DNA of 19,033 nucleotides. Source: a virus. Taxonomy: Duplodnaviria; Heunggongvirae; Uroviricota; Caudoviricetes. How positions within the stretch are numbered: position 1 is the stretch's first letter; each line of letters starts with the position of its first letter. The position numbers and the translations under genes were made by a program. Shown here one piece after another: positions 653 to 16,843 of this stretch. The notes under the pieces were generated by a model, which was not told where the DNA came from, made no database searches, and saw only the letters and a list, made by a program, of their open reading frames with translations. Location of the stretch: the IMG/VR virus record IMGVR_UViG_2802429219_000005; one strand, 5' to 3'.

Positions 653-1201
653 GTGAAGGTTAACAAAAAGAAACTAGCGGAAATTTTTGAGTGCGATGTC
701 AGAACAATCACTGGCTGGCAAAGTCAGGGGCTGAGAGTTTTGTCGGGGGGAGGCAAAGGTATCGAGGCCATGTTCAATACAGCAGAAGCCATTGAGTGGT
801 ATGCGCAGCGGGAAAAAGATATCGAAAACGAAAAGCTCCGCAAAGAACTGGAAGATTTGCGTGCGGCTGCAGAATCAGATTTACAACCCGGCACCATTGA
901 CTATGAACGCTACCGGCTCACCAAAGCACAGGCTGACGCACAGGAGCTGAAAAATGCCCGTGAAGAAGGGCTGGTGCTGGAAACGGAATTGTTTACCTTC
1001 ATTCTGCAACGTGTGGCACAGGAGATTTCGGGGATACTTGTACGTGTGCCGCTGACATTACAGCGTAAATATCCGGATATTTCACCATCACACCTTGATG
1101 TGGTGAAAACTGAAATCGCGAAAGCCTCCAATGTTGCAGCTAAAGCCGGTGAAAACGTGGGCAGGTGGATTGATGATTTCAGACGCACAGAAGGCAGCTA
1201 A
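653..1201 (+). CDS. nu1: terminase small subunit, lambda Nu1-like
   Basis: 182 aa, GTG start. [12 protein letters not shown]...GGGKG...[14 protein letters not shown]...[27 protein letters not shown] aligns along its length with recalled lambda Nu1 (MEVNKKQLADIF...IENEKLRREVEELR...[27 protein letters not shown]). SD-like GAGGAA at 638-643. Confidence 0.92.
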
Positions 1202-3089
1202 TGCAGCCGGTGCGATAGCTACAGGGCTTTTATCTCTCAATATTCCGGTTCCACTGACGACGGTTCAGTGGGCTGATCAACATTATTATCTGCCGAAAGA
1301 ATCTTCATACACTCCCGGACAATGGGAAACCCTGCCGTTTCAGGTTGCCATTATGAACAGCATGGGAAATGACCGGATCCGCACCGTTAATCTGATTAAA
1401 TCGGCGCGCGTTGGTTACACCAAAATGCTGTTGGGGGTGGAGGCTTATTTTATTGAGCATAAATCCCGTAACAGTCTGCTTTTTCAGCCAACAGATTCTG
1501 CGGCAGAAGATTTCATGAAATCTCATGTTGAGCCAACGATCAGGGATGTCCCTGCATTGCTGGAGCTGGCTCCATGGTACGGAAGAAAGCACCGCGATAA
1601 TACACTTACCCTGAAGCGTTTTTCCTCCGGCGTGGGGTTCTGGTGCCTGGGCGGTGCCGCAGCTAAAAACTACCGTGAAAAATCTGTGGATGTGGTCTGC
1701 TATGACGAACTCTCCTCGTTTGAACCGGATGTGGAAAAAGAAGGCTCGCCGACGCTGCTTGGCGATAAACGTATCGAAGGCTCGGTATGGCCTAAATCCA
1801 TACGCGGCTCAACGCCGAAAATTAAAGGCTCCTGCCAGATTGAGAAAGCCGCGAATGAATCTGCGCATTTCATGCGGTTTTATGTCCCTTGCCCTCATTG
1901 CGGGGAGGCCCAGTATCTGAAGTTTGGCGATGATGCGACGCCGTTTGGCCTGAAATGGGAGAAGGGTAAACCGGAAACGGTGTATTACCTGTGTGAACAT
2001 AATGGCTGTGTGATCCGGCAGTCGGAACTTGACCAGACCGACGGGCGCTGGATTTGTGACAATACCGGGATGTGGACGCGCGACGGCCTGGCATTTTACA
2101 GCGCCGGTGATGAGGAGATGCCGCCACCGCGCTCAATCACGTACCACGTGTGGACAGCGTACAGTCCGTTCACCACCTGGGTACAGATTGTTTATGACTG
2201 GCTGGATGCGCTGAAGGATCCGAACGGTGTTAAGACGTTTATTAACACCACGCTCGGGGAGCCCTATGAAGAGGCCGTGGCAGAAAAACTGAGCTTTGAG
2301 TTGTTGCTGGAAAAAGTCTGCCACTATGGTGCGCAGGTTCCCCTGCGGGTGGTTTACCTGACCGCCGGGATCGACTCCCAGAAAGATCGCTATGAAATTT
2401 ATGTCTGGGGCTGGGCTCCCGGCGAAGAAGCCTTTCTGATTGATAAGCAAATTATCATGGGGCGACCGGAAGACGAGGACACCCTTAAACGTGTTGATAC
2501 GGTGATCCGGAAAAAATATCGTCATGCTGACGGTACTGAAATTTCCATTTCCCGTGTCTGCTGGGATACCGGTGGTATCGACCAGGACATTGTGTATCAG
2601 CGTTCCAGGAAACACGGCACTTTTTTTGTGCTTCCCATAAAAGGGGCATCGGTGTACGGCAAGCCGGTGATCACCATGCCCAAAAAGCGCAACCAGCGTG
2701 GTGTGTTTTTGTGTGAGGTGGGCTCCGATACCGTCAAGGAAATGCTGTACGCCCGTTTTGCCCTGCCAGTGGTCTCTGTCAGTGAAGCCGCCCCGTATAC
2801 CTTCCGTTTTCCGGATAACCCCGACATTTTTTCGGAAGAAGAGGCGCGTCAGATCGTGGCGGAAGAGCTGGTGGAGAAGGTGGTTAATGGCAGGGTGAAA
2901 CTGCTGTGGGATAAAAAAGGGCGACGCAACGAAGCCCTCGACTGCCTGGTATATGCCTATGCTGCCCTGCGTATTTCAGTTCAGCGGTGGCAGCTGGATC
3001 TTGAAGCACTGGCCCGTGCCAGAAGAGATGAGCAGGACGACGATGAGATGAGTCTGGAAGAAATCGCGGCTGCACTGAGTGGAGGATAA
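1173..3089 (+). CDS. A: terminase large subunit, lambda gpA-like
   Basis: Long ORF with strong similarity to recalled lambda gpA ([64 protein letters not shown]-terminal [19 protein letters not shown]). Start chosen at in-frame ATG 1173, giving the same N-terminal length as lambda and a 29-nt overlap with Nu1, as in lambda; the ORF track starts further upstream at 1131. Confidence 0.93.
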
Positions 3090-3092
3090 AGA

Positions 3093-3302
3093 ATGGTTTA
3101 TACGCATGAAATGCTTTGTGATGCCCGTCGGGCATTACATGAACTGATGATCGGACGTGCTGTGGTTTCCGTCAGTAAGGACGGGCGTCAGGTTCAGTAT
3201 TCGCGGGCGACGATTGGTGAACTACGCCAGTATATTAAAGAGCTGGAAAGTGCGCTGGGCGTATCCGGACGGCGTTGTGCCCCGGCAGGAGTGGGGCTGT
3301 GA
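3093..3302 (+). CDS. W: head-tail joining protein, lambda gpW-like
   Basis: 69 aa. ARRALHELMIGRAVVSVSKDGRQVQYSRATIGELRQYIKELE...RRCAPAG resembles recalled lambda W ([26 protein letters not shown]...LKKYIAELE...RRRGPAG). GGAGGA at 3079-3084 upstream of the ATG. Confidence 0.85.
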   Translation: MVYTHEMLCDARRALHELMIGRAVVSVSKDGRQVQYSRATIGELRQYIKELESALGVSGRRCAPAGVGL

Positions 3303-4870
3303 ACGGGGAACTGGTGGATCTGCACGGGCAGCCATTGCGGCAGAGTATGGGATATTCCGGAGGGGGTACCGGATTTGGCGGGCAGCTTGCGGAATGGTTG
3401 CCTGCACCGGAAAGTGCCGATGTGGCGCTCTTACCTTCCATTCAGCTGGGTAACGCCCGTGCGGATGATCTGGTCCGTAACAACGGTATTGCCGCAAATG
3501 CAGTGGAAATTCATAAAGACCATATCGTCGGGCACATGTTTCGCCTGAGCTACCGGCCCAACTGGCGCTGGCTGGGGATGTCGGAAGCTGATTCGCATGC
3601 CTTTATTGAAGATGTGGAGGCGGCGTGGATGGAATATTGCGATCCTGTGTTTGGTTCGATGGATGTGGAGGGGCGTCGCTCGTTTACCGAATTTATTCGT
3701 GAAGGGGTGGGCGTTCATACGTTTAACGGTGAAATTTTTGTCCAGCCCGTATGGGATACGGAATCCACGTCATTATTCCGGACGAAATTCAAGACCATCA
3801 GCCCGAAACGTGTCAGTACGCCCGTTTATGGCATCGGCGATCGTTTTATGCGTGCCGGGGTGGAAATCAACCGGTACGGAAAAGCACTGGCCTACCATGT
3901 TCAGGAAGATGACTGGCCCGGTTACGGTGTCAGCAACTGGACGCGGATTGCGGCGACGCTGCCCTCCGGGCGACCGGGAATGATCCATGTGTTTCAGCCG
4001 CAGGAGGACGGGCAGACGCGCGGGGCCAACCAGTTTTATTCTGTCATGGAGCGCCTCAAGATGCTCGACACACTGCAGGCCACGCAACTGCAGTCGGCGG
4101 TGGTGCGGGCGATGTATGCCGCGACGATTGAATCCACACTGGATTCGGAAAAAGCATTTGAATATATCGCCGGGGTGGGAGACGGCGGAAAAAATCCCCT
4201 GAACACCATCATGAAAGGCTATGCGCGTTATTACGCCACCAATACGGTAAAACTGGGCGGGGTCCGTATTCCGCATCTTTACCCGGGGGATTCACTGAAT
4301 CTGCAGACAGCGCAGAATGCAGATAATGGTTTCTCTGAACTGGAAAAGGCGCTGTTACGTTACATTGCTGCCGGGCTGGGGGTGTCCTATGAACAGCTTT
4401 CCCGTGATTATTCACAGGTCAGTTATTCCAGTGCCAGGGCATCCGCCAATGAGTCGTGGCGGTATTTTATGGGCAAACGAAAATTTGTGGCCAGTCGACT
4501 GGCATCACAGATGTTTGCCTGCTGGCTGGAGGAAGCTCTTATTCGCGGTGTGATTCGCCCGCCGAAATCCCGTTTTTCATTCTGGGAGGCCCGTTCCGGA
4601 TGGTGTCGTGCCGAGTGGATTGGTGCCGGTCGCATGGCGATTGATGGCCTTAAGGAAGTGCAGGAAGCGGTGATGCGTATTGAAGGTGGTTTAAGCACGT
4701 ACGAGAAAGAGCTGGCCCTGATGGGCGATGACTATCAGGAGATTTTCCGCCAGCAACTGCGTGAAAGCCAGGAGCGACAGGCAGCGGGTCTTCCCCGCCC
4801 CATCTGGATAAAGGACACGTTTCAGCAGCAGATCCGACAGACAACGGGAGAAAAAGGTGATGCGTCGTAA
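3299..4870 (+). CDS. B: portal protein, lambda gpB-like
   Basis: About 524 aa. GGGTGFGGQL, LLPSIQLGNARADDLVRNNGIAANAVEIHKDHIVG match recalled lambda B. Start placed at in-frame GTG 3299, which overlaps the W stop as GTGA and follows AGGAG at 3286-3290; the ORF track start at ATG 3275 is the alternative. Confidence 0.9.
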   Translation: MNGELVDLHGQPLRQSMGYSGGGTGFGGQLAEWLPAPESADVALLPSIQLGNARADDLVRNNGIAANAVEIHKDHIVGHMFRLSYRPNWRWLGMSEADSHAFIEDVEAAWMEYCDPVFGSMDVEGRRSFTEFIREGVGVHTFNGEIFVQPVWDTESTSLFRTKFKTISPKRVSTPVYGIGDRFMRAGVEINRYGKALAYHVQEDDWPGYGVSNWTRIAATLPSGRPGMIHVFQPQEDGQTRGANQFYSVMERLKMLDTLQATQLQSAVVRAMYAATIESTLDSEKAFEYIAGVGDGGKNPLNTIMKGYARYYATNTVKLGGVRIPHLYPGDSLNLQTAQNADNGFSELEKALLRYIAAGLGVSYEQLSRDYSQVSYSSARASANESWRYFMGKRKFVASRLASQMFACWLEEALIRGVIRPPKSRFSFWEARSGWCRAEWIGAGRMAIDGLKEVQEAVMRIEGGLSTYEKELALMGDDYQEIFRQQLRESQERQAAGLPRPIWIKDTFQQQIRQTTGEKGDAS

Positions 4871-6338
4871 TTTATCGCATATTGCCGCCATGGCATTTAA
4901 TGAGCCGCTTTTACTGGAACCCGCCTATGCGCGGGTTTTCTTTTGCGCGCTGGGTAAAGAGATAGGGGCCGGCAGTCTTGCCGTTCCTCAGCAGGCTGTT
5001 CAGCTTGATGCTGATGGTATGCAACTGGCTGTGACTGACTATATGGCGGGCGGTCAGCGTCCGGCGAAGAGTTACCAGGTGAAGAATGGCATTGCCATTC
5101 TTCCGGTGAGCGGCACGCTGGTGCATAAACTGGGTACCCTGCGGCCTTACTCCGGCATGACAGGCTATGACGGTCTGACTGCTCGTCTTCAGATGGCGGT
5201 GAATGATCCGGATGTGCGCGGCATTTTGCTGGATATCGACAGCCCGGGCGGTCAGGCTGCCGGGGCGTTTGACTGTGCTGACATGATTTACCGTCTGCGG
5301 GAACAGAAGCCCGTGTGGGCGCTGTGTAATGACATGGCCTGTTCAGCCGCCATGTTGGTGGCGGCAGCCTGTACGCGTCGGCTGGTCACACAGACGGCAA
5401 AAATTGGTTCGATTGGCGTGATGATGGCGCACACCAGTTACGAGAAACAACTGGCACAGGAAGGGGTGGACATCACGCTGATTTACTCCGGGCAGCACAA
5501 GGTTGACGGCAACAGTATTCAGGCATTGCCGGCAGGTGTGCGTGCAGATTTTCAGCGCCGTATTGATGAGACCCGCCGGATGTTTGTCGACAAGGTGGCG
5601 CTTTATACGGGGCTGAGTTCAGAGGCGGTGATGAATACCGAGGCTGCCGTTTATGACGGTCAGGCAGGCATTGATGCAGGCCTGGCTGATCAACTGATTA
5701 ATGCTGCAGATGCCGTTGAAGTGATGGTTTCTGCACTGAATGACTCTGTTACGAAGGAGAATGCAATGACTGTTAAAAATCTCACCGTTGCTGAAGCGGT
5801 GGCCCAGGAAAATCAGCGCGTGATGGGGATCCTGAATTGTCAGGAGGCGAAAGGGCGCGAGCAACTGGCGCAAATGCTGGCAGGTCAGCTAGGAATGACG
5901 GTTGAGCAGGCGAAAGCGTTTCTGGCGGCAGCCCCTGCTGCCAGTGCTGCAGGCACAGGCGATCAGATTATGGCGTTGCCGGAAGCAAAAGGGCGTGAAC
6001 AACTCGCGCAGGCGCTGGCTGAACAGCCGGGAATGACCGTTGACCAGGCAAAAACGTTACTGGCGGCGGCACCGGTTGCTGGTTCTGCAAGTGTCGGCGA
6101 TCAGATTATGGCACTGCCCGAGGCGAAAGGGCGCGAGCAACTTGCACAGGCGCTGGCAGAACAACCGGGAATGACGGTGGCGCAGGCGAAAACGTTGCTG
6201 GCAGCCGCACCGGCGGCATCGCAACCGTCACAGGAAACACTTTTTGATCGCTTTATGGCACAGCATGCCACCAGTTCGGTTTCCGGTGGCGGAACTGCCG
6301 GGCGCGGGGAAGAAGACCTGCTGATGAGTATGCCGTAA
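4857..6338 (+). CDS. C: head maturation protease / minor capsid protein, lambda gpC-like, with C-terminal scaffold region containing a triplicated repeat
   Basis: 493 aa. N-terminus RNLSHIAAMAFNEPLLLEPAYARVFFCAL matches recalled lambda C (RNLPHIASMAFNEPLMLEPAYARVFFCAL). About 54 aa longer than lambda C (439 aa as recalled), roughly one extra repeat unit. Start at 4857 (GTG) or 4860 (ATG). Confidence 0.9.
   Translation: MMRRNLSHIAAMAFNEPLLLEPAYARVFFCALGKEIGAGSLAVPQQAVQLDADGMQLAVTDYMAGGQRPAKSYQVKNGIAILPVSGTLVHKLGTLRPYSGMTGYDGLTARLQMAVNDPDVRGILLDIDSPGGQAAGAFDCADMIYRLREQKPVWALCNDMACSAAMLVAAACTRRLVTQTAKIGSIGVMMAHTSYEKQLAQEGVDITLIYSGQHKVDGNSIQALPAGVRADFQRRIDETRRMFVDKVALYTGLSSEAVMNTEAAVYDGQAGIDAGLADQLINAADAVEVMVSALNDSVTKENAMTVKNLTVAEAVAQENQRVMGILNCQEAKGREQLAQMLAGQLGMTVEQAKAFLAAAPAASAAGTGDQIMALPEAKGREQLAQALAEQPGMTVDQAKTLLAAAPVAGSASVGDQIMALPEAKGREQLAQALAEQPGMTVAQAKTLLAAAPAASQPSQETLFDRFMAQHATSSVSGGGTAGRGEEDLLMSMP
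5766..6338 (+). CDS. nu3: putative Nu3-like scaffolding protein from an internal in-frame start within C
   Basis: In-frame ATG at 5766 preceded by AAGGAG (5754-5759) at 6 nt spacing. Product (190 aa) is Ala/Gln/Glu-rich and contains the three tandem repeats. Lambda Nu3 is likewise nested in frame in the 3' part of C. Inferred from signals and precedent only. Confidence 0.45.
   Translation: MTVKNLTVAEAVAQENQRVMGILNCQEAKGREQLAQMLAGQLGMTVEQAKAFLAAAPAASAAGTGDQIMALPEAKGREQLAQALAEQPGMTVDQAKTLLAAAPVAGSASVGDQIMALPEAKGREQLAQALAEQPGMTVAQAKTLLAAAPAASQPSQETLFDRFMAQHATSSVSGGGTAGRGEEDLLMSMP
5832..6245 (+). repeat. three tandem, in-frame 138-nt (46-aa) repeats inside C/Nu3 (copies start about 5832, 5970, 6108)
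   Basis: Protein repeats (M)ALPEAKGREQLAQALAEQPGMTV(D/A)QAKTLLAAAP...GDQI. The DNA copies differ at many synonymous positions (gggcgcgagcaactggcg / gggcgtgaacaactcgcg / gggcgcgagcaacttgca), so this is not a recent slippage event. Confidence 0.85.
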
Positions 6339-6377
6339 GCGGTATCCGGAATTCAGATAAATCAGGAGACTGAAAAA

Positions 6378-6713
6378 ATGATTAAAACCACCACGGAAAA
6401 GCGTGCAGATGTGCGCATTTTTGCCGGAAGCGATCCGGCGCATACCGCAACAGCCACCAGTGGTATCAGTGCTGCCACACCTGCACTGACGCCACTGATG
6501 GTGGATGACGCCACCGGAAAACTGGTTGTCTGGGATGGTCAGAAAGCCGGAACGGCTGTGGGGGTGCTGGCTCTGGCGCTTGCCGGGACCGAGCCCACGC
6601 TGACGTACTACAAAAGCGGTACGTTTGCCACTGAGTCGCTGGTCTGGCCTGGTTCGGTGGATGCGGTGAAAAAAGCCAACGCATTTGTGGGAAGTGCCAT
6701 CAGCCACGCCTGA
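6378..6713 (+). CDS. D: head decoration protein, lambda gpD-like
   Basis: 111 aa. SDPAHTATA...TPLM...KLVVWDG...YKSGTF...AFVGSAIS matches recalled lambda D (110 aa). SD AGGAG at 6363-6367. Confidence 0.9.
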   Translation: MIKTTTEKRADVRIFAGSDPAHTATATSGISAATPALTPLMVDDATGKLVVWDGQKAGTAVGVLALALAGTEPTLTYYKSGTFATESLVWPGSVDAVKKANAFVGSAISHA

Positions 6714-6735
6714 TGGTGAAGTGATTAACTGAAAA

Positions 6736-6767
6736 AACGGGTCGCGATGCGGCCCGTTTGTGTTTCT
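6736..6767 (+). terminator. intergenic stem-loop with U-rich tail between D and E (terminator-like or mRNA-stabilising hairpin)
   Basis: 10-bp stem AACGGGTCGC / GCGGCCCGTT (6736-6745 / 6749-6758, one G-U pair), 3-nt loop, followed by TGTGTTTCT. Confidence 0.4.
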
Positions 6768-6782
6768 GAAGGAAAATAAATT

Positions 6783-7811
6783 ATGGGGTTATTTACCACG
6801 CGTCAGTTACTCGGGTACACCGAGCAGAAAGTGAAATTTCGTGCGCTGTTTCTTGAGCTGTTCTTTCGTCGCACGATCACTTTCCATACTCAGGAAGTCA
6901 TGCTGGATAAAATTACCGGCAAAACACCGGTTGCGGCGTATGTGTCTCCGGTGGTGTCAGGCAAAGTGCTGCGCAGCCGTGGTGGTGAAACCCGCGTGTT
7001 ACGTCCCGGTTATGTAAAACCAAAACACCGCTTTGATTATCAGCAGGCTGTAGAACGTCTTCCGGGGGAAGATCCGGCCCGCCTTAATGACCCGGCTTAC
7101 CGCCGTCTGCGTATTCTGACGGACAATCTGAAACAGGAAGAGCAGGCGATTGTGCAGGTGGAAGAAATGCAGGCAGTCAGTGCTGTTCTGCAGGGTAAAT
7201 ACACCATGAGCGGCGAGCAGTTTGAGACGGTGGAAGTGGATTTTGGGCGTTCTGCCGCCAATAACATTACGCAGGCTGGCGGACGCGAATGGTCGAAGCA
7301 GAATGCTGATACCTTCGATCCGACGCATGATCTGGATGCGTACTGCGATTTCGCTTCCGGCACCATCAATATCGCGATTATGGACGGCACGGTCTGGCGT
7401 ATGCTGAACGGTTTTAAACTGTTCCGTGAAAAACTGGATACCCGCCGTGGCTCCAAATCTGAGCTGGAAACGGCACTGAAAGACCTGGGCTCCGTGGTTT
7501 CCTTTAAAGGCCATTACGGCGATCTGGCAATTGTGGTGGCGAAGACAACGTATGTTGACGAAAACGGGGATGAACAGCGTTATCTGCCGGAAGGTACACT
7601 GATTCTGGGGAACACTCAGGCGGAAGGCGTCCGTTGTTATGGTGCCATTCAGGATAATCAGGCACTGAGTGAAGGGATCACCTCTGCGATTCGTTATCCG
7701 AAACACTGGGAGGAAGTGGGGGATCCTGGTTGCGAATATACCATGACGCAGTCTGCGCCGTTGATGGTGCTGCCGGATCCGGATGCGTTTGTGGTGGTTC
7801 AGGTGAAATAA
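6783..7811 (+). CDS. E: major capsid protein, lambda gpE-like
   Basis: 342 aa. Extensive identity to recalled lambda E: YVSPVVSGKVLRSRGG, PGYVKPKH, AIVQVEEMQAVSAVLQGKYTMSGEQFE, EKLDTRRGSKSELETALKDLG, GDLAIVV, LGNTQAEG, MTQSAPLMVLPDPDAFVVVQ. Confidence 0.95.
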   Translation: MGLFTTRQLLGYTEQKVKFRALFLELFFRRTITFHTQEVMLDKITGKTPVAAYVSPVVSGKVLRSRGGETRVLRPGYVKPKHRFDYQQAVERLPGEDPARLNDPAYRRLRILTDNLKQEEQAIVQVEEMQAVSAVLQGKYTMSGEQFETVEVDFGRSAANNITQAGGREWSKQNADTFDPTHDLDAYCDFASGTINIAIMDGTVWRMLNGFKLFREKLDTRRGSKSELETALKDLGSVVSFKGHYGDLAIVVAKTTYVDENGDEQRYLPEGTLILGNTQAEGVRCYGAIQDNQALSEGITSAIRYPKHWEEVGDPGCEYTMTQSAPLMVLPDPDAFVVVQVK

Positions 7812-7816
7812 GACGG

Positions 7817-7842
7817 GGCGGGATATTCCCGCCTTTTTCTTT
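7817..7842 (+). terminator. rho-independent terminator-like hairpin downstream of the major capsid gene
   Basis: GGCGGGA (7817-7823), loop TAT, TCCCGCC (7827-7833), followed by TTTTTCTTT (7834-7842). Confidence 0.6.
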
Positions 7843-7861
7843 AGCGCACGGGAGAGATGTG

Positions 7862-8239
7862 ATGACAAAAGAGCAGATGACGGAACGCCTTCAGGAACTG
7901 GCAGTGATTCTGGGGCGTGAAGCAGATATTTCAGGTTCAAAAGCCGATCTTGAGCAGCGCCTGGCGGAATGGGAAGAAGAAGCAGAATGTATTCATCAGA
8001 CTGATGAGATTTCTGATGAAATTTCCGAAGTACAGAAAACAGAGAAAGTTACGCAGAATGCAACTGATCTGGTTCGGGTAAGAATGAAAGTGACGGCTCA
8101 CCTTTGTGCTTTTGATGAGCACGGCACCCGCCGGGTGGAATTTGCTCTGGCAGGTCAAATTGTCAGTCTGGAGTCTCATCGCCTTGCCAGCGTCATTGCT
8201 GCCGGAGTGGCTGAGGTTTGCCATGCTGTCGATGTCTGA
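7862..8239 (+). CDS. FI: DNA packaging / head assembly protein, lambda FI-like
   Basis: 125 aa from ATG 7862 (GGAGAG at 7851-7856). N-terminus MTKEQMTERLQELAVILGREADISGSKADLEQRLAEWEEE resembles recalled lambda FI (MTKDELIARLRSLGEQLNRDVSLTGTKEELALRVAELKEE). Position after E is as in lambda. The ORF track starts upstream at 7730, inside E. Confidence 0.8.
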   Translation: MTKEQMTERLQELAVILGREADISGSKADLEQRLAEWEEEAECIHQTDEISDEISEVQKTEKVTQNATDLVRVRMKVTAHLCAFDEHGTRRVEFALAGQIVSLESHRLASVIAAGVAEVCHAVDV

Positions 8240-8597
8240 TAATGATTTTGACCGGGCTATGGCAAAAGCTGATCACGAGATACTCAGGGCGATGGGGCGT
8301 GAGTTTCATATTCAGGCCGGTGGGCGTTTTGTCCATATCTGGGGCGTACTGGATGAGACTGAGTCTGATGTTCTCCTGAAAAAAGGAGGAGGGATGATTC
8401 ATGATGTCGCTCCACGGTTGTTTGTTTGCACCCGTGATATCGAAGGTGTATCCAGGAAAAGTCGGGTTGAGTGTGATGGTGTTGTTTACTGGGTGGTAAG
8501 TATTGGCCCGGACGACAATGGTTTCTGTTATCTGACGCTGGCGCGTGGGGAACCGGGTACGTCACTGCCGGTTATTGACGGGTGGAGTAAAAAATAA
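8223..8597 (+). CDS. FII: head-tail connector protein, lambda FII-like
   Basis: 124 aa from ATG 8223 (GAGG at 8213-8216). SDNDFDRAMAKADHEILRAMG...VHIWGVLDE...PRLFVCTRD...VVYWVVSIGPDDNGFCYLTLARGEP parallels recalled lambda FII (ADFDNLFDAAIARADETIRGYMG...PSLFVRTDE...FWVDRVSPDDGGSCHLWLGRG). Confidence 0.8.
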   Translation: MLSMSDNDFDRAMAKADHEILRAMGREFHIQAGGRFVHIWGVLDETESDVLLKKGGGMIHDVAPRLFVCTRDIEGVSRKSRVECDGVVYWVVSIGPDDNGFCYLTLARGEPGTSLPVIDGWSKK

Positions 8598-8618
8598 ACT
8601 TCATAAGGAGATATCGCA

Positions 8619-9318: not shown

Positions 9319-9882
9319 ATGGCTGAACCCTTATGCATGGCATCCTGGCACGCTGCTGTGCTGGGTGCCCTGAAAGAACTTAAATGGATCAGGGATGCGG
9401 ATACCTACCCTGAACGGGTTACGCAACTGGTCACTCCGGCGGTGTTTCTGGCGGTCGATGGCTGGGATGCGAAAAACAATGCAGACGGACAGATGACGGT
9501 GGTGTTGTCTGCTGCGCTGTGGGTGCTGGTTGATCGTGCCGGTGAGCCGGAGAACGAAAAAAAGGAAGTGGCTGCAAAGCCGGATATTTTTATCCGTTCG
9601 GCAGCCGCCGATCTGACGCACTGGCTCGACGGACAGACGTTCGGGCTGGCAAATGTGGAGCCTGCCATTTTTATATCAGCGGACGCAGATGAAACCGATC
9701 CGCGCCTGGATGATTATCTGGTCTGGCAGATTTCATTTAACCAGACGGTGACGTTTGGTATGGATCTCTTTGCCACGGATAACCTGCCGCTACAGCGGGC
9801 CTGGCTGGGTGTTGCACCGGAGATCGGGCGACAGCATGTGGATGATTACCGGCTGATTTTTGAGAGAAAGCCACGTGAATGA
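9319..9882 (+). CDS. putative tail terminator protein (lambda gpU-like)
   Basis: 187 aa, SD GAGGA at 9308-9312. N-terminal motifs HAAVLGAL and PAVFLAVDG, 28 residues apart, parallel AAVLDAL and PAVAVYLTG (29 apart) in recalled lambda U. Stop overlaps the start of the spike gene (GTGAATGA). Moderate confidence in the family assignment. Confidence 0.55.
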   Translation: MAEPLCMASWHAAVLGALKELKWIRDADTYPERVTQLVTPAVFLAVDGWDAKNNADGQMTVVLSAALWVLVDRAGEPENEKKEVAAKPDIFIRSAAADLTHWLDGQTFGLANVEPAIFISADADETDPRLDDYLVWQISFNQTVTFGMDLFATDNLPLQRAWLGVAPEIGRQHVDDYRLIFERKPRE

Positions 9883-10495
9883 GGTTCTGGGGGATTTACA
9901 GCGCCGCCTGGCAAATATGGTCCGGCGCGGGGTGATCCACTCGGTGCGGCTGGACGGTGGTTTTCCGGAATGCCGCGTGGATCTGGGGGATATTGTGACC
10001 ACCTGGCTGCCATTATGTCAGGGGTTTGCCGGAAAAAACAGGGCAGATTTTGAGCCGTTTGCTGTGGGTGATGCGGTTACGGTGCTGTCAGAGGCCGGGG
10101 AGCTGAATAACGGTCGTGTTTTTCCCGGCTGGAATACCGGTGAGGCACCGGCTCCGCAGGGCAGCGACAGTGAGCACATCACCCGTTACGGAGATGGTAC
10201 TGAAATTTGCTATAACCGGGAGACGCACTCACTGACCATTATTCTGGCGGAAGGGGGCACCTATGCCATTACCGGGAATGGTGTACTGGACGGAAACGTC
10301 ATGATTTCAGAAAACCTGATCGTGAACGGACGCACGATGGTTGAAGGTGAAGTGGTGGTGAAAAGTGATTTTTATGCAAAAGGAGAGGTGACGGATAAAT
10401 CCGGCAGTATGAGCCGGATCCGGGAAACGTTTAATGGACACGACCATCCCGGAGACAGTGGGGGAACCACGAAAGTACCGAATCAGAAAATGTGA
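9875..10495 (+). CDS. baseplate central spike / assembly protein, P2 gpV-like (Mu gp45-like)
   Basis: About 206 aa from GTG 9875. N-terminus (M)NEVLGDLQRRLANMVRRGVIHSV and C-terminal GHDHPGDSGGTT resemble recalled P2 gpV (LARALRNMIRTGII...HxHPGDSGGTT tip motif). The ORF track uses an upstream TTG at 9860. Confidence 0.85.
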   Translation: MNEVLGDLQRRLANMVRRGVIHSVRLDGGFPECRVDLGDIVTTWLPLCQGFAGKNRADFEPFAVGDAVTVLSEAGELNNGRVFPGWNTGEAPAPQGSDSEHITRYGDGTEICYNRETHSLTIILAEGGTYAITGNGVLDGNVMISENLIVNGRTMVEGEVVVKSDFYAKGEVTDKSGSMSRIRETFNGHDHPGDSGGTTKVPNQKM

Positions 10496-10516
10496 CCTGC
10501 TGCGGCAGGTTTTTTT
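10495..10516 (+). terminator. rho-independent terminator-like hairpin between spike gene and sheath gene
   Basis: ACCTGC (10495-10500), loop TGCG, GCAGGT (10505-10510), followed by a 7-T run ending at 10516. The stem begins at the last base of the V stop codon. Confidence 0.6.
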
Positions 10517-10533
10517 ATGTCCGGAGAATGCAA

Positions 10534-12003
10534 ATGGGGCAATTACATGGTGTGGAAACCATCGAGCTGACAGCAGGCACGGTGGCGGTAACCACAATAG
10601 AGACAGCCATTATTGGGGTGGTGGGAACCGCGCCGCAGGCTGCCGGGGCTGTGGCAGCAACACTGACAGCGGGAACGCCGTTGCTGGGTAACGAGCTGAC
10701 CTTTACGGCAAAAGCGGCGGGGCGGAGCGGAAATACCATTACCGTTATTGCTGAACAGGCTTTACAGGCAGCAAAAGAAAAAAGTGCGGGTGCGGTCCCC
10801 ACGTCAGCAAAATGGGAAAACGGAAGCCTGTTGATTTGGCTTGGATGCAGTGAAGAGGGGGCCGGTAATGCCACCGTCAGCGATGTTGTGACGGCAGTGA
10901 ATGGCGTGGCTGGGGTCGGGGTGAGTGCCACCGGCAGCGGTGACGGTATTGTGTCGCCGTTTTCCGGCACACTGAGTGGCGGTGAAGATGAACCGTTTCC
11001 GCTGAACACGCCAGTGGCGATGGCGGGAACAACGGCGCTTTCACGTCTGGGGCTCACCGGAACACTGAAGCAGGCGCTGACGGAGATTAACGACCAGCGT
11101 AACGCGCTGTCGGTGATCGTCCGGGTGGAAGAAAAAACGAAGCCGGAAGAGCAGCGTGCTGCCATTCTTGCGGGGATCAGCATGCTGTCATCGGCAAAAT
11201 CCGTCACCACGTATCAGCCACGTATTGTGATTGCACCAGGATTCAGTGAAGACGATGCGGTAGGTAAGGCACTGGAAACTGTGGCCGGAAAACTGCGGGC
11301 AGTGGCGTACGTGGATTGTGCTGCGGGCGCGACACTGCAGGAAGTGGTGCAGCGTCGTCAGTCTTACGGTGCCCGGACTGAACTACTGCGCCCGCGTGTG
11401 CAGGTCAGTAATGCAGAGGGGCAACTGGTGTATCGCCCGTATTCGGCGTTTGCTGCCGGACTGCGTGCCCGTATTGACTATGAAAAAGGGTGGTGGTGGA
11501 GCAAATCAAACCAGGAGGTTTACAACATCCTCGGTGTTGAGCAGGTGGATGAATTTATCCTCGGTGAGCGTAACTGCGATGCCAACCTGCTTAATATGCA
11601 GAATGTCTCCACCCTGATCCGCCGCGCCGGATTTAAACACTGGGGAAACCGGCTGTGCTCGTCCCATCCTCAGTGGCATTTCGAGTCCGTCCGCCGTACT
11701 GCGGATGTGATTGAAGACAGTATTCAGGAAGCGATGCTGGCATATGTTGACCGCCCGCTTGATCGTCAGAATGCGGACGACATCATTGGCACCATTAATG
11801 CGTATATGCGCCGTCTGGTGGCAGAAGGTGCCATCTTCGGGGGGCGGGCATGGCTGGATCCGGAACTGAATACCGCCGAAACGCTGGCAGCCGGTGAACT
11901 GTACATCAACTATGACTTCGGTCCCAAATCGCCGACTGAACTTATCAGCATGCGGGTGAGCGTCAACAACGAATACGGCATTAAGGAGATGAAGGCAACA
12001 TGA
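10534..12003 (+). CDS. contractile tail sheath protein (P2 FI / Mu L-like) with an extra N-proximal Ala/Gly/Thr-rich region
   Basis: About 489 aa from ATG 10534 (GGAG at 10523-10526). LHGVETIEL near the N-terminus and NVSTLIRRAGFKHWGNR, AGELYINYDFGP in the C-terminal half are typical of P2-type sheath proteins. Roughly 100 aa longer than P2 FI as recalled. Confidence 0.88.
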   Translation: MGQLHGVETIELTAGTVAVTTIETAIIGVVGTAPQAAGAVAATLTAGTPLLGNELTFTAKAAGRSGNTITVIAEQALQAAKEKSAGAVPTSAKWENGSLLIWLGCSEEGAGNATVSDVVTAVNGVAGVGVSATGSGDGIVSPFSGTLSGGEDEPFPLNTPVAMAGTTALSRLGLTGTLKQALTEINDQRNALSVIVRVEEKTKPEEQRAAILAGISMLSSAKSVTTYQPRIVIAPGFSEDDAVGKALETVAGKLRAVAYVDCAAGATLQEVVQRRQSYGARTELLRPRVQVSNAEGQLVYRPYSAFAAGLRARIDYEKGWWWSKSNQEVYNILGVEQVDEFILGERNCDANLLNMQNVSTLIRRAGFKHWGNRLCSSHPQWHFESVRRTADVIEDSIQEAMLAYVDRPLDRQNADDIIGTINAYMRRLVAEGAIFGGRAWLDPELNTAETLAAGELYINYDFGPKSPTELISMRVSVNNEYGIKEMKAT

Positions 12004-12506
12004 GCAGTAAAAACACATTACGGGCCTGGACTTTTTTCCGCCAGGGGATCCGTATTCAGGGAGCGCATGAGTTCACGCCACCCACGCTGTCCATAACCAC
12101 CACCGATTTACGCACCGGGGCACAGGATGCGCCCACGCCGGTTGACGACGGCATGGAGGCGCTGACCTGCCAGATTAAATTCTATGGTCTGGATACAGAC
12201 ATGCTGTCCAGTCTCGGATTTGTCAGTGGCAGCCGCTCCCGCTTCACGGCCTATCAGGGCTATCTGGCAAACGGCACCGCGCTGGGGACCACCGAAGAAA
12301 TCGAAGGTTTTGTGAAAACGGTGACGCCGGATGCGCGCGGAAACAGCGGGCTGTCAGAAAATGCGGTGACAGTGGAAATCGCGGTGAATTATTACCGTCA
12401 GACGCTGGAGGGGATCGAACTCATTATGATTGATACCGAGCGTTTTGAGCGTCGGATCAACGGCGTGAATGTTCTCGCCGGCCTGTCGGCAAAAGTGCGT
12501 CTCTGA
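12000..12506 (+). CDS. tail tube protein (P2 FII / Mu M-like)
   Basis: 168 aa. Start overlaps the sheath stop (ATGA). Size and position immediately after the sheath gene are canonical for contractile-tail tube proteins; assignment is by synteny, with no specific motif match recalled. Confidence 0.8.
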   Translation: MSSKNTLRAWTFFRQGIRIQGAHEFTPPTLSITTTDLRTGAQDAPTPVDDGMEALTCQIKFYGLDTDMLSSLGFVSGSRSRFTAYQGYLANGTALGTTEEIEGFVKTVTPDARGNSGLSENAVTVEIAVNYYRQTLEGIELIMIDTERFERRINGVNVLAGLSAKVRL

Positions 12507-12522
12507 GCACTGATTAACGCAT

Positions 12523-12546
12523 AACGGCCTGCGGGCCGTTTTTTTT
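12523..12546 (+). terminator. rho-independent terminator-like hairpin after the tube gene
   Basis: AACGGCC (12523-12529), loop TGCG, GGCCGTT (12534-12540), followed by TTTTTT (12541-12546). Immediately precedes the chaperone SD AAGGAG. Confidence 0.65.
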
Positions 12547-12558
12547 AAGGAGCAGATT

Positions 12559-12858
12559 ATGAATATTCCGGGTGAAACCCGCACCATCACACTGTACACA
12601 CCTGTCACTCTGGGGGGCGGGGCTGTGCTGGAACACATCACCATGCGCGAACCGCTGGTGCGCGATCGCATTGCCTTCACCAAAGACCGGGGAACAGAGG
12701 AGGAAAAAGAGGCGCGTATGATTGCGCAGCTTTGTAATCTGAGTGAGCAGGATATCTGGCTGCTGACCGCAGCGGATTATGCCCAGCTGACGGATGCCTT
12801 TAATGTTTTTATGCTGCCACCCGGGAAGCGACCGAAACCGAAATCTTCAGAGGGTTAA
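12559..12858 (+). CDS. tail assembly chaperone (P2 gpE / lambda gpG analogue)
   Basis: 99 aa, SD AAGGAG upstream of ATG 12559. Small acidic protein between the tube and tape measure genes, the conserved position of frameshifting tail chaperones. Confidence 0.75.
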   Translation: MNIPGETRTITLYTPVTLGGGAVLEHITMREPLVRDRIAFTKDRGTEEEKEARMIAQLCNLSEQDIWLLTAADYAQLTDAFNVFMLPPGKRPKPKSSEG

Positions 12859-12986
12859 GGTTTCTCGGGCGGCGGCTGCATTTTCCTCTTTCCGATTATC
12901 TGTCCATGCCGTTCAGTGTGTTTACGGCATTTTTACTGGATGAAGTGGAGGCGGTAAAACGTGGGAAGCGTAAGTCAGAATCTTAA
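12559..12986 (+). CDS. putative -1 frameshift extended chaperone (P2 E+E' / lambda GT analogue); slip predicted at the T-run 12806-12810
   Basis: The -1 frame opens at 12804 (after TAA 12801-12803) and runs to TAA 12984-12986, overlapping the tape measure start. It reads CFYAATREATETEIFRGLRFLGRRLHFPLSDYLSMPFSVFTAFLLDEVEAVKRGKRKSES. Predicted fusion is about 142 aa, the size of P2 E+E' as recalled. No canonical X_XXY_YYZ heptamer, so only single-tRNA slippage on UUU is possible. Confidence 0.45.
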
Positions 12987-14610
12987 GGCCACCGTGTCGT
13001 TCGGGGGCAAACTGGACAGTTCGTGGCGTCGTTCGGCGACGGATCTGCGAAAAAATCTGCAGGATGTGGAGCAGCAGGCTGCGCGTTTGCGTAAGGAGCA
13101 GGCAGAGCTGGCAGCAGAAATGAAGCGGGCGGCGCTGGCAGGGAAACGTTTTAAGTCGATGGAGGATGAATACGCCCGGCTCACTGCTGAAATTAAGAAA
13201 GCGGATGCGGCCCAGAAAAAACTGAACCGGAGCCTTGAGCGTCGCGATCGGCTCGGACGTTTTATGGGGAAGGGAAAAAGTCTGCTTGCCGGAACCGGCA
13301 AATTTGCCTGGAATGCCGGTCTGGCGATGGGGGGCGGTGCCGTGACCACGGCACTTGGTGCGCTGATTGCTCCGGCAGCCATGAATGCGCAGACGGCTGA
13401 AACGGCGGGTAAAGCGACTGCGTATGGCGTGGATACCCGTACGTACATGAATTGGGACGCCCTGGCAAAACAGTACGATATGACCGGCGATAATATCGGA
13501 GATCTGTTTGAGGAATACCTGCATAAGGCCGGGGAATATAAACAAAATGGCAAGCAGAGTTCGCTTTCTGACGCCTTTGAAACGCTGGGATTTAAGGAGG
13601 GCGATCTTGCCGGACTGAGTGATTCGTCGCAGTTCGAAAAAATTATCGACAGGGCGCTGTCTCTGGAAGATGAATCAAAGGCATCTTTTGCGCTGGATGC
13701 ATTGTTTGGTGGTGAAGCCAGTAAACTGCTGATGCTGATCAAACGTTCAGGAAAAAGTTTTCAGGAACTGCTGGCTGAGCAGGATAAATATAATCTGGTG
13801 ACAAAAGAGGGGGTGGCTGGCGCACTTGCCGGAAACAAGGCTGTTTCTGATTTGCAGCAGGTTTTTTCTTCTGCGGTTGCAGAAATTTCCGGACAACTGG
13901 GCGCAGAGCTGGCTCCCGCTATACAACAGACAGCGGGTGACCTGGCAGAGTGGTTTAAAGGTGGAGGCATTAAAAAGGTTGTGTCTTTTCTGAGGGACAC
14001 CCTGTATCCGGCAGCCCTGAAGTTTGGCGAAGGCGTCATTTTTGTCGGAAAAATCATTTTTGCAGCAGCCAAAAAGCTCTCCTGGTTGTTACCGGATGAA
14101 CAGGGCGATCAGAAGCAGATTCTGGAGTATGTCGGGCGTGGTGACATGACCGCTGCCCGGACAGTGGCCCGGAACAGCGGGCAGGATGCGTGGCTTGACG
14201 GGCAACTGAAAAATAATCCCGATTTTGAAAAGAGTGTCCGTGAAAAATACAACGCCGCGAAGGGCTTTATGGGCATTGTGGATACGGATGCGTTTCATGA
14301 ATCGGTGAACAGTTACCTCACGCCGGAAAAAACGTTCGATTTTTCGCTGCCGGCAGGATCCGCCGGAAAACAGGATGATCCTTTTGCCAGTGCGGGGGCA
14401 TGGCAGGCTGCCGTGCAGGCTATTCCTGTTGAGGGCGGACAGTCCGGCGCACAGCTGAATGACAACAGTGTGAAGAATTATAACTTCAACATTGTTGCGC
14501 AGCCCGGACAGAGCGAACAGGGTATTGCGGACGCCATTGCCGGAATGACGAAAAACAACCCGGCCTTCAGTGGTAATAATGCGTTGTGGGATGGAGGAAG
14601 TGTCTGGTGA
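12961..14610 (+). CDS. tail tape measure protein
   Basis: 549 aa, GTG start with GGAGG at 12946-12950. Coiled-coil-like N-terminus (LRKNLQDVEQQAARLRKEQAELAAEMKRAAL), Gly/Ala-rich central region, and position after the chaperone. Confidence 0.85.
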   Translation: MGSVSQNLKATVSFGGKLDSSWRRSATDLRKNLQDVEQQAARLRKEQAELAAEMKRAALAGKRFKSMEDEYARLTAEIKKADAAQKKLNRSLERRDRLGRFMGKGKSLLAGTGKFAWNAGLAMGGGAVTTALGALIAPAAMNAQTAETAGKATAYGVDTRTYMNWDALAKQYDMTGDNIGDLFEEYLHKAGEYKQNGKQSSLSDAFETLGFKEGDLAGLSDSSQFEKIIDRALSLEDESKASFALDALFGGEASKLLMLIKRSGKSFQELLAEQDKYNLVTKEGVAGALAGNKAVSDLQQVFSSAVAEISGQLGAELAPAIQQTAGDLAEWFKGGGIKKVVSFLRDTLYPAALKFGEGVIFVGKIIFAAAKKLSWLLPDEQGDQKQILEYVGRGDMTAARTVARNSGQDAWLDGQLKNNPDFEKSVREKYNAAKGFMGIVDTDAFHESVNSYLTPEKTFDFSLPAGSAGKQDDPFASAGAWQAAVQAIPVEGGQSGAQLNDNSVKNYNFNIVAQPGQSEQGIADAIAGMTKNNPAFSGNNALWDGGSVW

Positions 14611-15086
14611 GTGTGGGTTCGGTTATTGCTCTCGCTGAAGACAGCCTTCAGCGTTACAACAGTTATCTCCGTGGTGCTGCAGATGCCAGAGTCATGCTGA
14701 TGCTGGGGGATTTCGCCTTTTCCGTGGATACCACGGCATATAACCAGCTGACCCGTGAGGCCGGGTGGACCTGGAGCGAGCAGTCGCGTATCGGGCAGCA
14801 GAGTCTGCTGCAGTACACCGGGAAAAACGGGCGAACCGTCCGCCTTGAAGGGGAATCGCACGCCTTTTTGGGGAAGTCAGGGACGGAGGCGGTGAACACG
14901 CTGTATGACCTGGCAAATAAGGCTGAGCCGCAACTGCTGGTCAGTGGAGAAGGTGATGTGCTGGGATGGTGGGTGGTGGAGCGTTTTTCTGATTCCACCG
15001 ACTGCTTTTTACCTGGTGGTGGGCACCGTAACAAAAAGTGGAGTCTGGAGCTGAAACATTATGCCGACGATCTGGATAACCCGTGA
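14607..15086 (+). CDS. tail protein, P2 gpU-like
   Basis: About 159 aa from GTG 14607 (GGAGGAAG at 14593-14600); the ORF track uses GTG 14586. MLMLGDFAFSVDTTAYNQLTREAGWTWSEQSRIGQQSLLQYTGKNGRTVRLEG fits the P2 gpU family pattern as recalled. Overlaps the tape measure stop. Confidence 0.75.
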   Translation: MSVGSVIALAEDSLQRYNSYLRGAADARVMLMLGDFAFSVDTTAYNQLTREAGWTWSEQSRIGQQSLLQYTGKNGRTVRLEGESHAFLGKSGTEAVNTLYDLANKAEPQLLVSGEGDVLGWWVVERFSDSTDCFLPGGGHRNKKWSLELKHYADDLDNP

Positions 15087-15276
15087 CGGGGATGTGCTTG
15101 ATGCGATTTGCGCCACGCATTACGGCACGGAAAATCTGTCTGCCGTGCTCACTCTTGTGCTGGAGGCCAATCAGGGGTTGGCAGAGAAGGGCGCGGTTTA
15201 TCCGGCGGGGATCCGGATTGTGTTGCCTGAAATCACACAACAGGTGTCTGAGTCGCCATACAGCCTGTGGGATTAA
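15061..15276 (+). CDS. tail protein X, P2 gpX-like (LysM-like)
   Basis: 71 aa. GDVLDAICATHYG...VLEANQGLAEKGAVYPAGIRIVLPEI resembles recalled P2 X (GDTLDAICVRYYG...VLAANPGLAELGAV). U-X-D order matches R-type pyocin clusters. Confidence 0.75.
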   Translation: MPTIWITRDGDVLDAICATHYGTENLSAVLTLVLEANQGLAEKGAVYPAGIRIVLPEITQQVSESPYSLWD

Positions 15277-15284
15277 GGGAGGAG

Positions 15285-16487
15285 ATGATGACGTCATTAT
15301 TCGAACAGCTGCAGGCAATAAATGCTGCGTATCAGGAGTCCCTGAACAGTGAGGAAAAACAGGAAACCATTGCCACGACCGTCCGGGAATTCTGCCCGGC
15401 GTATCGGGTGACAGCTGAAGGGCGGGATATCACGCGGGTGCTGGCCCGTTATCTTGTGGATATCACTCTGACGGATTACGGCGGAGCCACCGCCAAATCT
15501 GATGAACTGAAAATCACGCTGCTTTCTGAAACACTGCCCCTGCCGACAAAGGGGGCGCGTCTGCGGGTGGCGATGGGGTTTAACGGTAATCTGGTGGACA
15601 AGGGCTGGTTTGTGGTGTGCGGCGTGAGCAGCAGCGGCCCGCCGCGGCGGATCGAGATTTATGCTACCGCTGCCCCCATGAATGCGGAAAAGCAGTCCGG
15701 TGATGTGCTGAATCAGAAAACACGCAGCTGGGATAATCTCACGCTGGGTGATCTGGTGAAAACTGTTGCCACGGAAAACGGACTGAAGGCCCGGGTGGCG
15801 GAGAAGCTGGCGGGGATCCGCATTACCCATGTGGATCAGGTGGCAGAATCGGATGCCAGCCTGTTGTCCCGCCTTGCCCGGACGTATAACGCCGTCAGTA
15901 AACCTGCCGGAGGTTACTGGTTGTTTCTGGAGCAGGGTGCCGGAACCACCGTATCGGGCGCGCCCCTGAAGACCGTGACGCTGACACCTTCCGTGGTGTC
16001 ATCCTGGAATTATCAGGAAGGTGAACGGGGGAGCTCTGGCGGCGGTGGAGATAAAAAAAAGAAGAAAGAAAAAATCACGGTTCGTTATTTTGACAAGGCT
16101 GACGGGCGAACCAAAACGGCAACCGTGGAGCATGACGGCTCGTCTGTAACCAGTCCGTACACGCAACCGGAAAAGGAAACGGCTGAACAACAGGCAAAAT
16201 CGAAAAAAACACAGGCGCAACGCAACAGCCGGAAAATGACGCTGACAGGGCCGTGCCGTCCTTCATATGTTGCCATGACCGCCGAATCCGGCGTGGTGAC
16301 ATCCGGATTTGGTAAGCGGGAAGATCGCCGCTGGCTCGTGGAATCACTGTTTTTTTCCCTCTCATCTTCAGGCTTTACCTTCACGTTTAATCTGGTGGCT
16401 GAAATCAAAAACGCCAGTAAATCAGACAAAAAATCCGGTGATAAAACAGGGCCGGATTATTTTGGTATCGGATCGGGAAAAAAATAA
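15285..16487 (+). CDS. baseplate hub / late control protein, P2 gpD-like (Mu gp44-like), with an internal Gly/Lys-rich low-complexity insert
   Basis: About 400 aa from ATG 15285 (AAGGGAGG upstream; second ATG at 15288). Size and position after U/X match P2 gpD-type proteins. Contains SSGGGGDKKKKKEK encoded by an A8 tract (16053-16060). Confidence 0.8.
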   Translation: MMTSLFEQLQAINAAYQESLNSEEKQETIATTVREFCPAYRVTAEGRDITRVLARYLVDITLTDYGGATAKSDELKITLLSETLPLPTKGARLRVAMGFNGNLVDKGWFVVCGVSSSGPPRRIEIYATAAPMNAEKQSGDVLNQKTRSWDNLTLGDLVKTVATENGLKARVAEKLAGIRITHVDQVAESDASLLSRLARTYNAVSKPAGGYWLFLEQGAGTTVSGAPLKTVTLTPSVVSSWNYQEGERGSSGGGGDKKKKKEKITVRYFDKADGRTKTATVEHDGSSVTSPYTQPEKETAEQQAKSKKTQAQRNSRKMTLTGPCRPSYVAMTAESGVVTSGFGKREDRRWLVESLFFSLSSSGFTFTFNLVAEIKNASKSDKKSGDKTGPDYFGIGSGKK

Positions 16488-16489
16488 TC

Positions 16490-16843
16490 ATGAATGGTGT
16501 GAACTGCCGGACAGGGAAGCGTCTGTCCGGTGCGGCGCATCTGCGCCAGTCTGTCAGCGATATTCTGAACACGCCAGTGGGAAGCCGTGTTCTGGTCAGG
16601 GATTACGGCAGCGATCTTTTTGAATTGCTGGACTCTCCCCGGGATGACCTGTTGAGGCTGCGCATAATAGCTGCCACGGCGACGGCGCTGGCACGCTGGG
16701 AGCCCCGGCTGAAAGTGTCAAAAGTGATCGTAACGTTTCCGGAGGATGAGGCCGGATGTGTGGTGGATATCATGGGGACGAATACGGAAACCGGTACACA
16801 GGTGACAACAGGAGGAATAACCGTTTATGGCAGAAAGTTATGA
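16490..16843 (+). CDS. baseplate assembly protein W (gp25-like / GPW family)
   Basis: 117 aa. HLRQSVSDILNTPVGSRVLVRDYGSDLFELLDSP...ARWEPRLKVSKV is typical of GPW/gp25 baseplate wedge proteins. ATG 3 nt after the gpD-like stop. Confidence 0.85.
   Translation: MNGVNCRTGKRLSGAAHLRQSVSDILNTPVGSRVLVRDYGSDLFELLDSPRDDLLRLRIIAATATALARWEPRLKVSKVIVTFPEDEAGCVVDIMGTNTETGTQVTTGGITVYGRKL

Follow-up and report, generated by a model that had tools for sequence, protein, structure and literature searches.

Why the scaffold portion of a phage prohead protease should hold the same short element three times over is the question raised by one locus in a 19,033-nt stretch of DNA (the window, by which we mean the whole stretch), taken from a virus of the Caudoviricetes (Duplodnaviria; Heunggongvirae; Uroviricota; IMG/VR record IMGVR_UViG_2802429219_000005). 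There, a lambda C-like S49 prohead protease/scaffold fusion gene (4860-6338, plus strand; 492 amino acids from ATG 4860, on the evidence of Pfam, PHROG and the list of open reading frames (ORFs)) carries a tandem array of 138-nt units. On balance we favour the reading that the array comprises three helical scaffold-core domains of ~38 residues strung on 8-residue Ala/Gly/Ser linkers, as putative multivalent modules that would bind the capsid shell.

A first-pass annotation made from the sequence had described a 46-residue unit triplicated in tandem and in frame, and this description holds: the units read as it gave them. Tandem Repeats Finder returned a single array at 5843-6214 with a period of 138, 2.7 copies, 78% matches, no indels and a score of 457. 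Within 5832-6245, self-identity rises to 0.707 at an offset of 138 and 0.630 at an offset of 276 (z = 10.9 and 9.0), against a background at other offsets of 0.266 (sd 0.040), and the top offset in 500 codon shuffles did not exceed 0.493; periodicity in the self-comparison is therefore strong at both one and two unit lengths. The 138-nt (46-codon) units, at about 5823-6236, share their frame with the ORF at 4857/4860-6338, and their natural register begins seven residues before the EAKG motif, 9 nt upstream of the phase first assigned.

In this register, all three units lie on the plus strand. Unit 1 (5823-5960; 78.8 bits with a hidden Markov model (HMM) of the unit) consists of a 38-codon core (5823-5936) and an 8-codon Ala/Ser/Gly linker, with the sequence MGILNCQEAKGREQLAQMLAGQLGMTVEQAKAFLAAAP-AASAAGTG, and its head reads MGILNCQ where the others have DQIMALP. 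Unit 2 (5961-6098; 78.1 bits) reads DQIMALPEAKGREQLAQALAEQPGMTVDQAKTLLAAAP followed by the linker VAGSASVG. Unit 3 (6099-6236; 75.5 bits) has a core at 6099-6212, DQIMALPEAKGREQLAQALAEQPGMTVAQAKTLLAAAP-, after which the register enters the C-terminal tail; having no linker of its own and continuing directly into the tail, it accounts for the count of 2.7 copies at the DNA level. This tail, common to protease and scaffold (6213-6335, plus strand; AASQPSQETLFDRFMAQH...EEDLLMSMP), has a predicted helix at 6231-6266 and a disordered end, and its motif F..FM..H...LLMSMP is kept across homologues, phage 21 included, the lambda equivalent being LDRLM...LLNTPV. An assembly artefact was rejected as the source of the array, which is present in the phage 21 record, in complete Escherichia coli genomes and in five independent contigs that encode exactly the protein of the window.

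The array lies where the first-pass annotation had placed it, in the scaffold portion of the gene, downstream of an internal ATG at 5766. A Shine-Dalgarno sequence, AAGGAG (5755-5760, plus strand), stands 5 nt before this in-frame ATG, which opens a nested Nu3/gp6-like scaffold ORF of 190 residues (5766-6338, plus strand) made up of an 18-residue N-terminus, the three units and a 41-residue tail; the repeats thus fall in a region common to the full-length protease and the nested scaffold. The nested ORF aligns with the annotated gene 6 of phage 21 and matches the PHROG 8399 head scaffolding protein (E 1e-41), and its internal Met is kept in all homologues inspected. Comparable start signals are found in lambda (AGGAGG, then ATG at residue 309 of C) and in phage 21 (GAGGAGG, then ATG, annotated as gene 6 with a ribosome-binding site), and from the Shine-Dalgarno sequence and the conserved Met we predict that the 190-residue scaffold is a separate product of the internal start. 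Pfam, PHROG, the alignment with gene 6 and the internal start agree with the original assignment of the gene as an S49 protease of the lambda C type in which an in-frame scaffold is nested, and herpesviruses use the same nested in-frame protease/scaffold logic. The length excess of ~54 residues over lambda C was also estimated correctly (492/493 against 439 residues); it is the outcome of 92 residues gained as two extra units minus ~38 residues lost through a shorter linker between the protease and the first unit.

Across the Nu3/gp6-type scaffold family, the unit forms the conserved core, and it is the only element kept in all relatives of the scaffold region. Searched with the 190-residue scaffold, a set of 1.84 billion 50%-identity representatives yielded 198 hits at E <= 0.001, and the unit HMM, seeded from window, phage 21 and lambda units, found at least one unit in every one of 206 scanned sequences. 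Among the 42 full-length sequences (at least 380 residues), a single unit is present in 38, two units in one and three units in three. Lambda C (439 residues) contains exactly one, MGILNCEEAHGREEQARVLAETPGMTVKTARRILAAAP, and the consensus of 104 diverse single units reads ER.RI.GIL.C.EAKGRE.LA..LA....M.V..AK..LAAAP. No model in Pfam, NCBIfam or PHROGs is dedicated to the unit, and none of the solved structures covers it. Weak, sub-threshold matches to the HU N-terminus (PF00216), DUF732, T2SSK and, in the PDB search, bL12 (L7/L12) were set aside as shared pattern and not homology: the HU/bL12-like stretch, LA..PGMTV.QAK.LLAAAP, corresponds to the second and third helices of each unit (5880-5925, 6018-6063 and 6156-6201), and the resemblance probably reflects a convergent 'G-hydrophobic-S/T-x-x-x-A-K' helix-turn-helix pattern. 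The unit also exists in separate scaffold-like genes, as indicated by a stand-alone 163-residue protein from Bradyrhizobium (P0051; L011, 5001-5492) that carries the unit with no S49 domain; its gene lies in a prophage-like region, directly upstream of a 297-residue gene and a few genes before the tape-measure gene.

Structure prediction gives this core a shape. With an alignment of 72 diverse units, AlphaFold2 modelled unit 1, together with the helix before it, as a compact domain of three helices (predicted local distance difference test (pLDDT) 96.8; predicted template modelling score (pTM) 0.80) at residues 2-17, 25-32 and 39-48. The 190-residue scaffold was modelled as three modules on short linkers (pLDDT 72.5, pTM 0.31), followed by one further helix (ETLFDRFMAQHA, residues 156-167) and a disordered end with pLDDT below 50 at residues 171-179. 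In this longer model, the helices of unit 2 lie at 64-69, 78-85 and 92-101, and the first helix of units 2 and 3 is shortened to about six residues; that of unit 1 begins earlier, at nucleotide 5787, making unit 1 the sole full-length domain. Comparison of the fold with BFVD returned matches only to the C-terminal domain of other phage S49 prohead proteases (template modelling scores 0.83-0.91). Tandem three-helix bundles of Gram-positive proteins (protein A Z/B, GA modules, Embp/Ebh) show a generic likeness of fold at 9-17% identity; their biology is unrelated and no homology is implied.

Over their 38-codon cores, units 2 and 3 share 37 of 38 residues, at 83% nucleotide against 97% amino acid identity: 17.5 of 28.3 synonymous sites differ (proportion of synonymous differences, pS, 0.62; Jukes-Cantor (JC) corrected dS ~1.3), compared with 1.5 of 85.7 non-synonymous sites (pN 0.018). 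By way of scale, the protease domains of the window and phage 21 give a pS of 0.57 and a pN of 0.185. The same imbalance, with pN far below pS between internal units, was found in all arrays examined, and this combination of high pS and low pN indicates that every copy is maintained at the protein level by strong purifying selection. The synonymous-site comparison gave no sign that the array is conserved at the nucleotide level. The suggestions that the copies diverge at synonymous sites and that they are old and maintained are thus both supported.

The number of copies varies among relatives. We surveyed the 120 best full-length homologues, found with the full-length protein as query, together with the 50%-identity representatives, because homologues found with the 190-residue scaffold alone were for the most part short 'partial' pieces from very small contigs. 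Aligned homologues range from one to five units, as opposed to three throughout. Two units are found in four proteins, three of 449-451 residues and the fourth an aberrant 743-residue entry. Three units are found in 72, of which 70 have 490-516 residues and two are aberrant (610 and 721 residues); holders of three units include Salmonella Gifsy-type, phage 21-type, Edwardsiella and Cronobacter proteins as well as the window. Four units occur in 41 proteins, mostly of 538 residues, from E. coli, Citrobacter, Salmonella, E. albertii and E. marmotae, and five units in two proteins from draft assemblies (568 and 578 residues). An apparent six-unit entry (P0247, 657 residues) was left out, its extra length being a larger duplication that takes in the linker and the scaffold N-terminus and that may be an assembly problem. 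Within the subclade of the window (75-90% identity), four-unit clusters hold ~1,550 member sequences and three-unit clusters ~200, making the three-copy form of the window a minority allele there.

Two observations on database entries belong beside these counts. Hits to the scaffold part are mostly entries named 'S49 family peptidase, partial', whose contigs span just a few hundred bases, indicating that the 138-nt repeats break short-read assemblies and that copy number is probably under-recorded. Separately, an E. coli protein named 'phage baseplate assembly protein V' (P0246; 610 residues, 95% identity over 89% of the window protein) begins as the protease/scaffold, breaks inside unit 3 and goes on as other sequence; either a defective prophage has undergone a deletion that fuses the head gene with a tail gene, or the sequence was misassembled at the repeat.

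Unequal homologous crossover between units lengthens and shortens the array, and hybrid units mark where this has happened. In a mismatch scan in 15-nt bins against the four-unit allele of E. coli E275 (a complete genome), the window matches in register up to ~5909 (98.0% identity, 0-2 mismatches per bin) and, from ~5910 on, matches E275 shifted by +138 nt (95.9% identity, 0-2 mismatches per bin), placing a crossover junction at 5895-5912 (plus strand). This switch of register means that unit 1 of the window joins the head of E275 unit 1 to the tail of E275 unit 2; units 2 and 3 of the window correspond to E275 units 3 (98% nucleotide identity) and 4 (93%). Similar footprints are seen elsewhere: with the three units of phage 21 called Tri1 to Tri3 in order, the first unit of the two-unit proteins joins a Tri1 head to a Tri2 tail, and one unit of a four-unit phage-21-type protein joins a Tri3 head to a Tri2 tail. 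In a Citrobacter portucalensis prophage, two units are identical at 114 of 114 nt, pointing to a very recent duplication. The first-pass annotation had named tandem repeats as hotspots of recombinational expansion and contraction, and the range of one to five units among homologues, with these hybrids, bears this out.

The history of the window array can be read further by comparing positions. Arrays of the phage 21/Salmonella type are position-specific, with a median within-array core identity of 0.59 and between-array identities of 0.77 for the same position against 0.58 for different positions. The units of the window are 0.86 identical to one another, and all are nearest to the unit-1 type of those arrays: unit 1 is 0.77 identical to the Tri1 type, and units 2 and 3 are 0.70 and 0.71 identical to the unit-1 type compared with 0.62-0.67 to units from positions 2 and 3. 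That units 2 and 3 are nearest to a unit-1 type indicates homogenisation or re-expansion in the clade of the window. The multi-unit state is thus common to the clade, and the lineage of the window homogenised or re-expanded its array long enough ago for synonymous sites to have become nearly saturated. Set against the commoner four-unit allele, the window array is a recombinant, and it looks homogenised from unit-1-like sequence and not like an untouched ancient triplet.

A triplication of this kind has been annotated before. The nearest relatives in the phage database are phage 21-type phages, whose proteins are ~64% identical overall to the window protein, and GenBank M81255, the phage 21 head operon (presumably that of Smith and Feiss 1993), marks repeat_regions in gene 6 as 'Tri1 box', 'Tri box' and 'Tri3 box', each with the remark 'function unknown; putative'; the array in the window is therefore not new in kind. 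Literature searches on the Tri box, phage 21 head genes, tandem repeats in scaffolds and the S49 prohead protease found nothing relevant in the collection searched. Like genes 5 and 6 of phage 21, the window locus has an S49 protease with a nested scaffold, repeats at the homologous place after the internal start, three in-frame units of ~46-50 residues with the motif EA(K/N)G(R/A)E...GMTV..A(K/R)..LAA, and the C-terminal tail (as judged from the gene 5 translation); the unit HMM scores 68-79 bits on all three units in both proteins, and unit 1 is 73% identical to Tri1 in nucleotides. The two differ in that the phage 21 units are position-specific and share 19-21 of 38 residues, whereas those of the window share 26-37 of 38 and are all unit-1-like, and in that unit 1 of the window is a crossover hybrid relative to the four-unit allele. 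With lambda C/Nu3, the locus shares gene order, the S49 domain, the internal Shine-Dalgarno sequence and ATG, the conserved unit and the C-terminal tail; unlike it, lambda has one unit and a longer preceding linker, with a protease of 439 against 492 residues and a nested product of 131 against 190.

What such a unit might do is suggested by better-studied scaffolds. Lambda Nu3 is a scaffold that interacts with E, B, C and itself in the lambda interaction map, the interaction with E having been detected by yeast two-hybrid (PMC3224144). In the scaffolds of P22 (gp8), phi29, SPP1, 80alpha and herpesvirus (UL26/UL26.5), C-terminal helical or helix-turn-helix motifs bind capsid protein, so that a small element targets the scaffold, and in herpesvirus also the in-frame protease, to its shell (PMC11565965). 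Taken together with the position of the unit as the sole conserved scaffold element, common to scaffold and protease, these precedents make it likely, by analogy, that the unit, here present in several copies per chain, is a module that targets the procapsid or binds the capsid protein. Each unit would anchor scaffold and protease to the inside of the shell as it assembles; the binding partner would be the E-like major capsid protein, and possibly the portal or the scaffold itself too; and the three-unit chain would act as a multivalent scaffold of the beads-on-a-string kind. The likeness to P22-type scaffolds has a limit, in that those have one binding motif per chain and no tandem array, and the unit showed no sequence or fold match to solved scaffolds, coat-binding domains included.

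Several observations weigh against this multivalent-module reading. Single-copy units have a long first helix and a near-invariant Arg, neither of which is present in units 2 and 3; these two may not be equivalent to unit 1. Lambda gpNu3 is reportedly intrinsically disordered, going by the title of Medina et al. 2011, a poor fit with a confidently folded unit. The fold comparison was uninformative on function, and capsid-protein binding by the unit is argued from analogy. Finally, the major capsid protein of the four-unit E275 prophage is 100% identical to that of the window (342 residues), and those of other three- and four-unit relatives are 85-98% identical; since an identical capsid protein occurs with three or four units, copy number is not co-adapted to the capsid protein, and valency may be of little functional consequence. 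The E275 match also weakens the idea, raised in the first-pass annotation, that repeat number tunes capsid assembly, although it may still affect efficiency. A range of copy numbers appears to be tolerated, without being matched to a particular capsid protein.

Such tolerance invites the explanation that the extra units are passengers of unequal crossover, an inert spacer drifting in number, with one unit or the tail alone doing the work. The spread of one to five copies among relatives, the pairing of identical capsid proteins with three or four units, the sufficiency of one unit in lambda and most of the family, and the truncated first helix of units 2 and 3 would all be expected if this were so. 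Inert spacers should decay, however, yet units 2 and 3 have kept 37 of 38 residues while 62% of their synonymous sites have changed; pN/pS is low in every array examined, and phage 21/Salmonella-type arrays hold three position-specific units across many prophages (0.77 against 0.58). We regard drift as a doubtful account of the array. Equally tentative is an extension of the multivalent-module reading in the opposite direction, in which the number of modules per chain (one to five, with the same capsid protein) would be a selectable polymorphism that sets valency and hence the efficiency or fidelity of procapsid nucleation, the synonymous divergence being selected recoding against recombinational loss over and above age.

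A less probable explanation is that the array serves as a ruler or tether, setting the reach from the protease domain or scaffold N-terminus to a C-terminal anchor, or the core volume, in place of the ~38 residues by which the lambda linker is longer. Lambda indeed combines a longer Ser/Thr/Ala-rich linker with one unit and the window an 18-residue N-terminus with three, the totals differing by 53 residues, and the beads-on-a-string model has flexible linkers; but a pure spacer needs no conservation of individual residues, and EAKGRE and GMTV.QAK are kept in every unit, while lengths from 449 to 578 residues coexist in close relatives. A nucleic-acid role, with the 138-nt repeats as iterons, as RNA structure controlling scaffold translation or as a programmed recombination site, has only the position of the repeats ~60 nt downstream of the internal scaffold start in its favour and is highly improbable, as conservation is at the amino acid level and the differences between units 2 and 3 are concentrated at synonymous sites; the same protein-level conservation led us to reject an overlapping gene, and no other-frame or other-strand ORF of at least 60 residues spans the array, a minus-strand ORF at 5619-5873 just clipping its 5' end.

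The surroundings of the array are those of a lambda-type head module in a prophage. The S49 domain (PF01343, SppA/ClpP-fold) covers residues 147-291 of the protease (E 6e-34), which also matches PHROG 53 head maturation protease (E 4e-204) and the SppA structures 3rst and 4kwb (E 1e-16). GTG 4857 opens the ORF with ATG 4860 directly after it, and gene callers choose the ATG (492 residues); the protease start overlaps the portal gene (3275-4870, stop 4868-4870) by 11 nt, as likewise in lambda and phage 21. The exact 492-residue product has been called on GCA_002965135.1 and four other contigs; in GCA_002965135.1, the order is Phage_portal_2, the S49 gene, HDPD, Phage_cap_E, Packaging_FI and Phage_attach, with Nu1 upstream, and the lambda-type order is Nu1, A, W, portal, protease/scaffold, D-like decoration, E-like major capsid protein, FI and FII. 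In the window, this packaging and head module (653-8600; Nu1, A, W, portal, C/Nu3, D, E, FI and FII) adjoins a P2-type contractile tail module (9860-18289) comprising baseplate V-like, sheath, tube, gpD hub, baseplate J and Tail_P2_I genes, and at the nucleotide level this tail module matches almost nothing in the phage collection.

For lambda-type phages, it is still poorly understood how scaffolds engage the shell. The Tri boxes of phage 21 emerge here as extra copies of a domain conserved across Nu3-like scaffolds and predicted to form a three-helix module; to their annotation, the analysis adds a view across the family, a predicted fold, a polymorphism of one to five copies, a mapped crossover and a signature of selection. 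In practice, the repeats disrupt short-read assembly and can mislead annotation based on length. For the family, they provide a natural allelic series of one to five copies, some with an identical capsid protein, that offers an experimental handle on scaffold valency.

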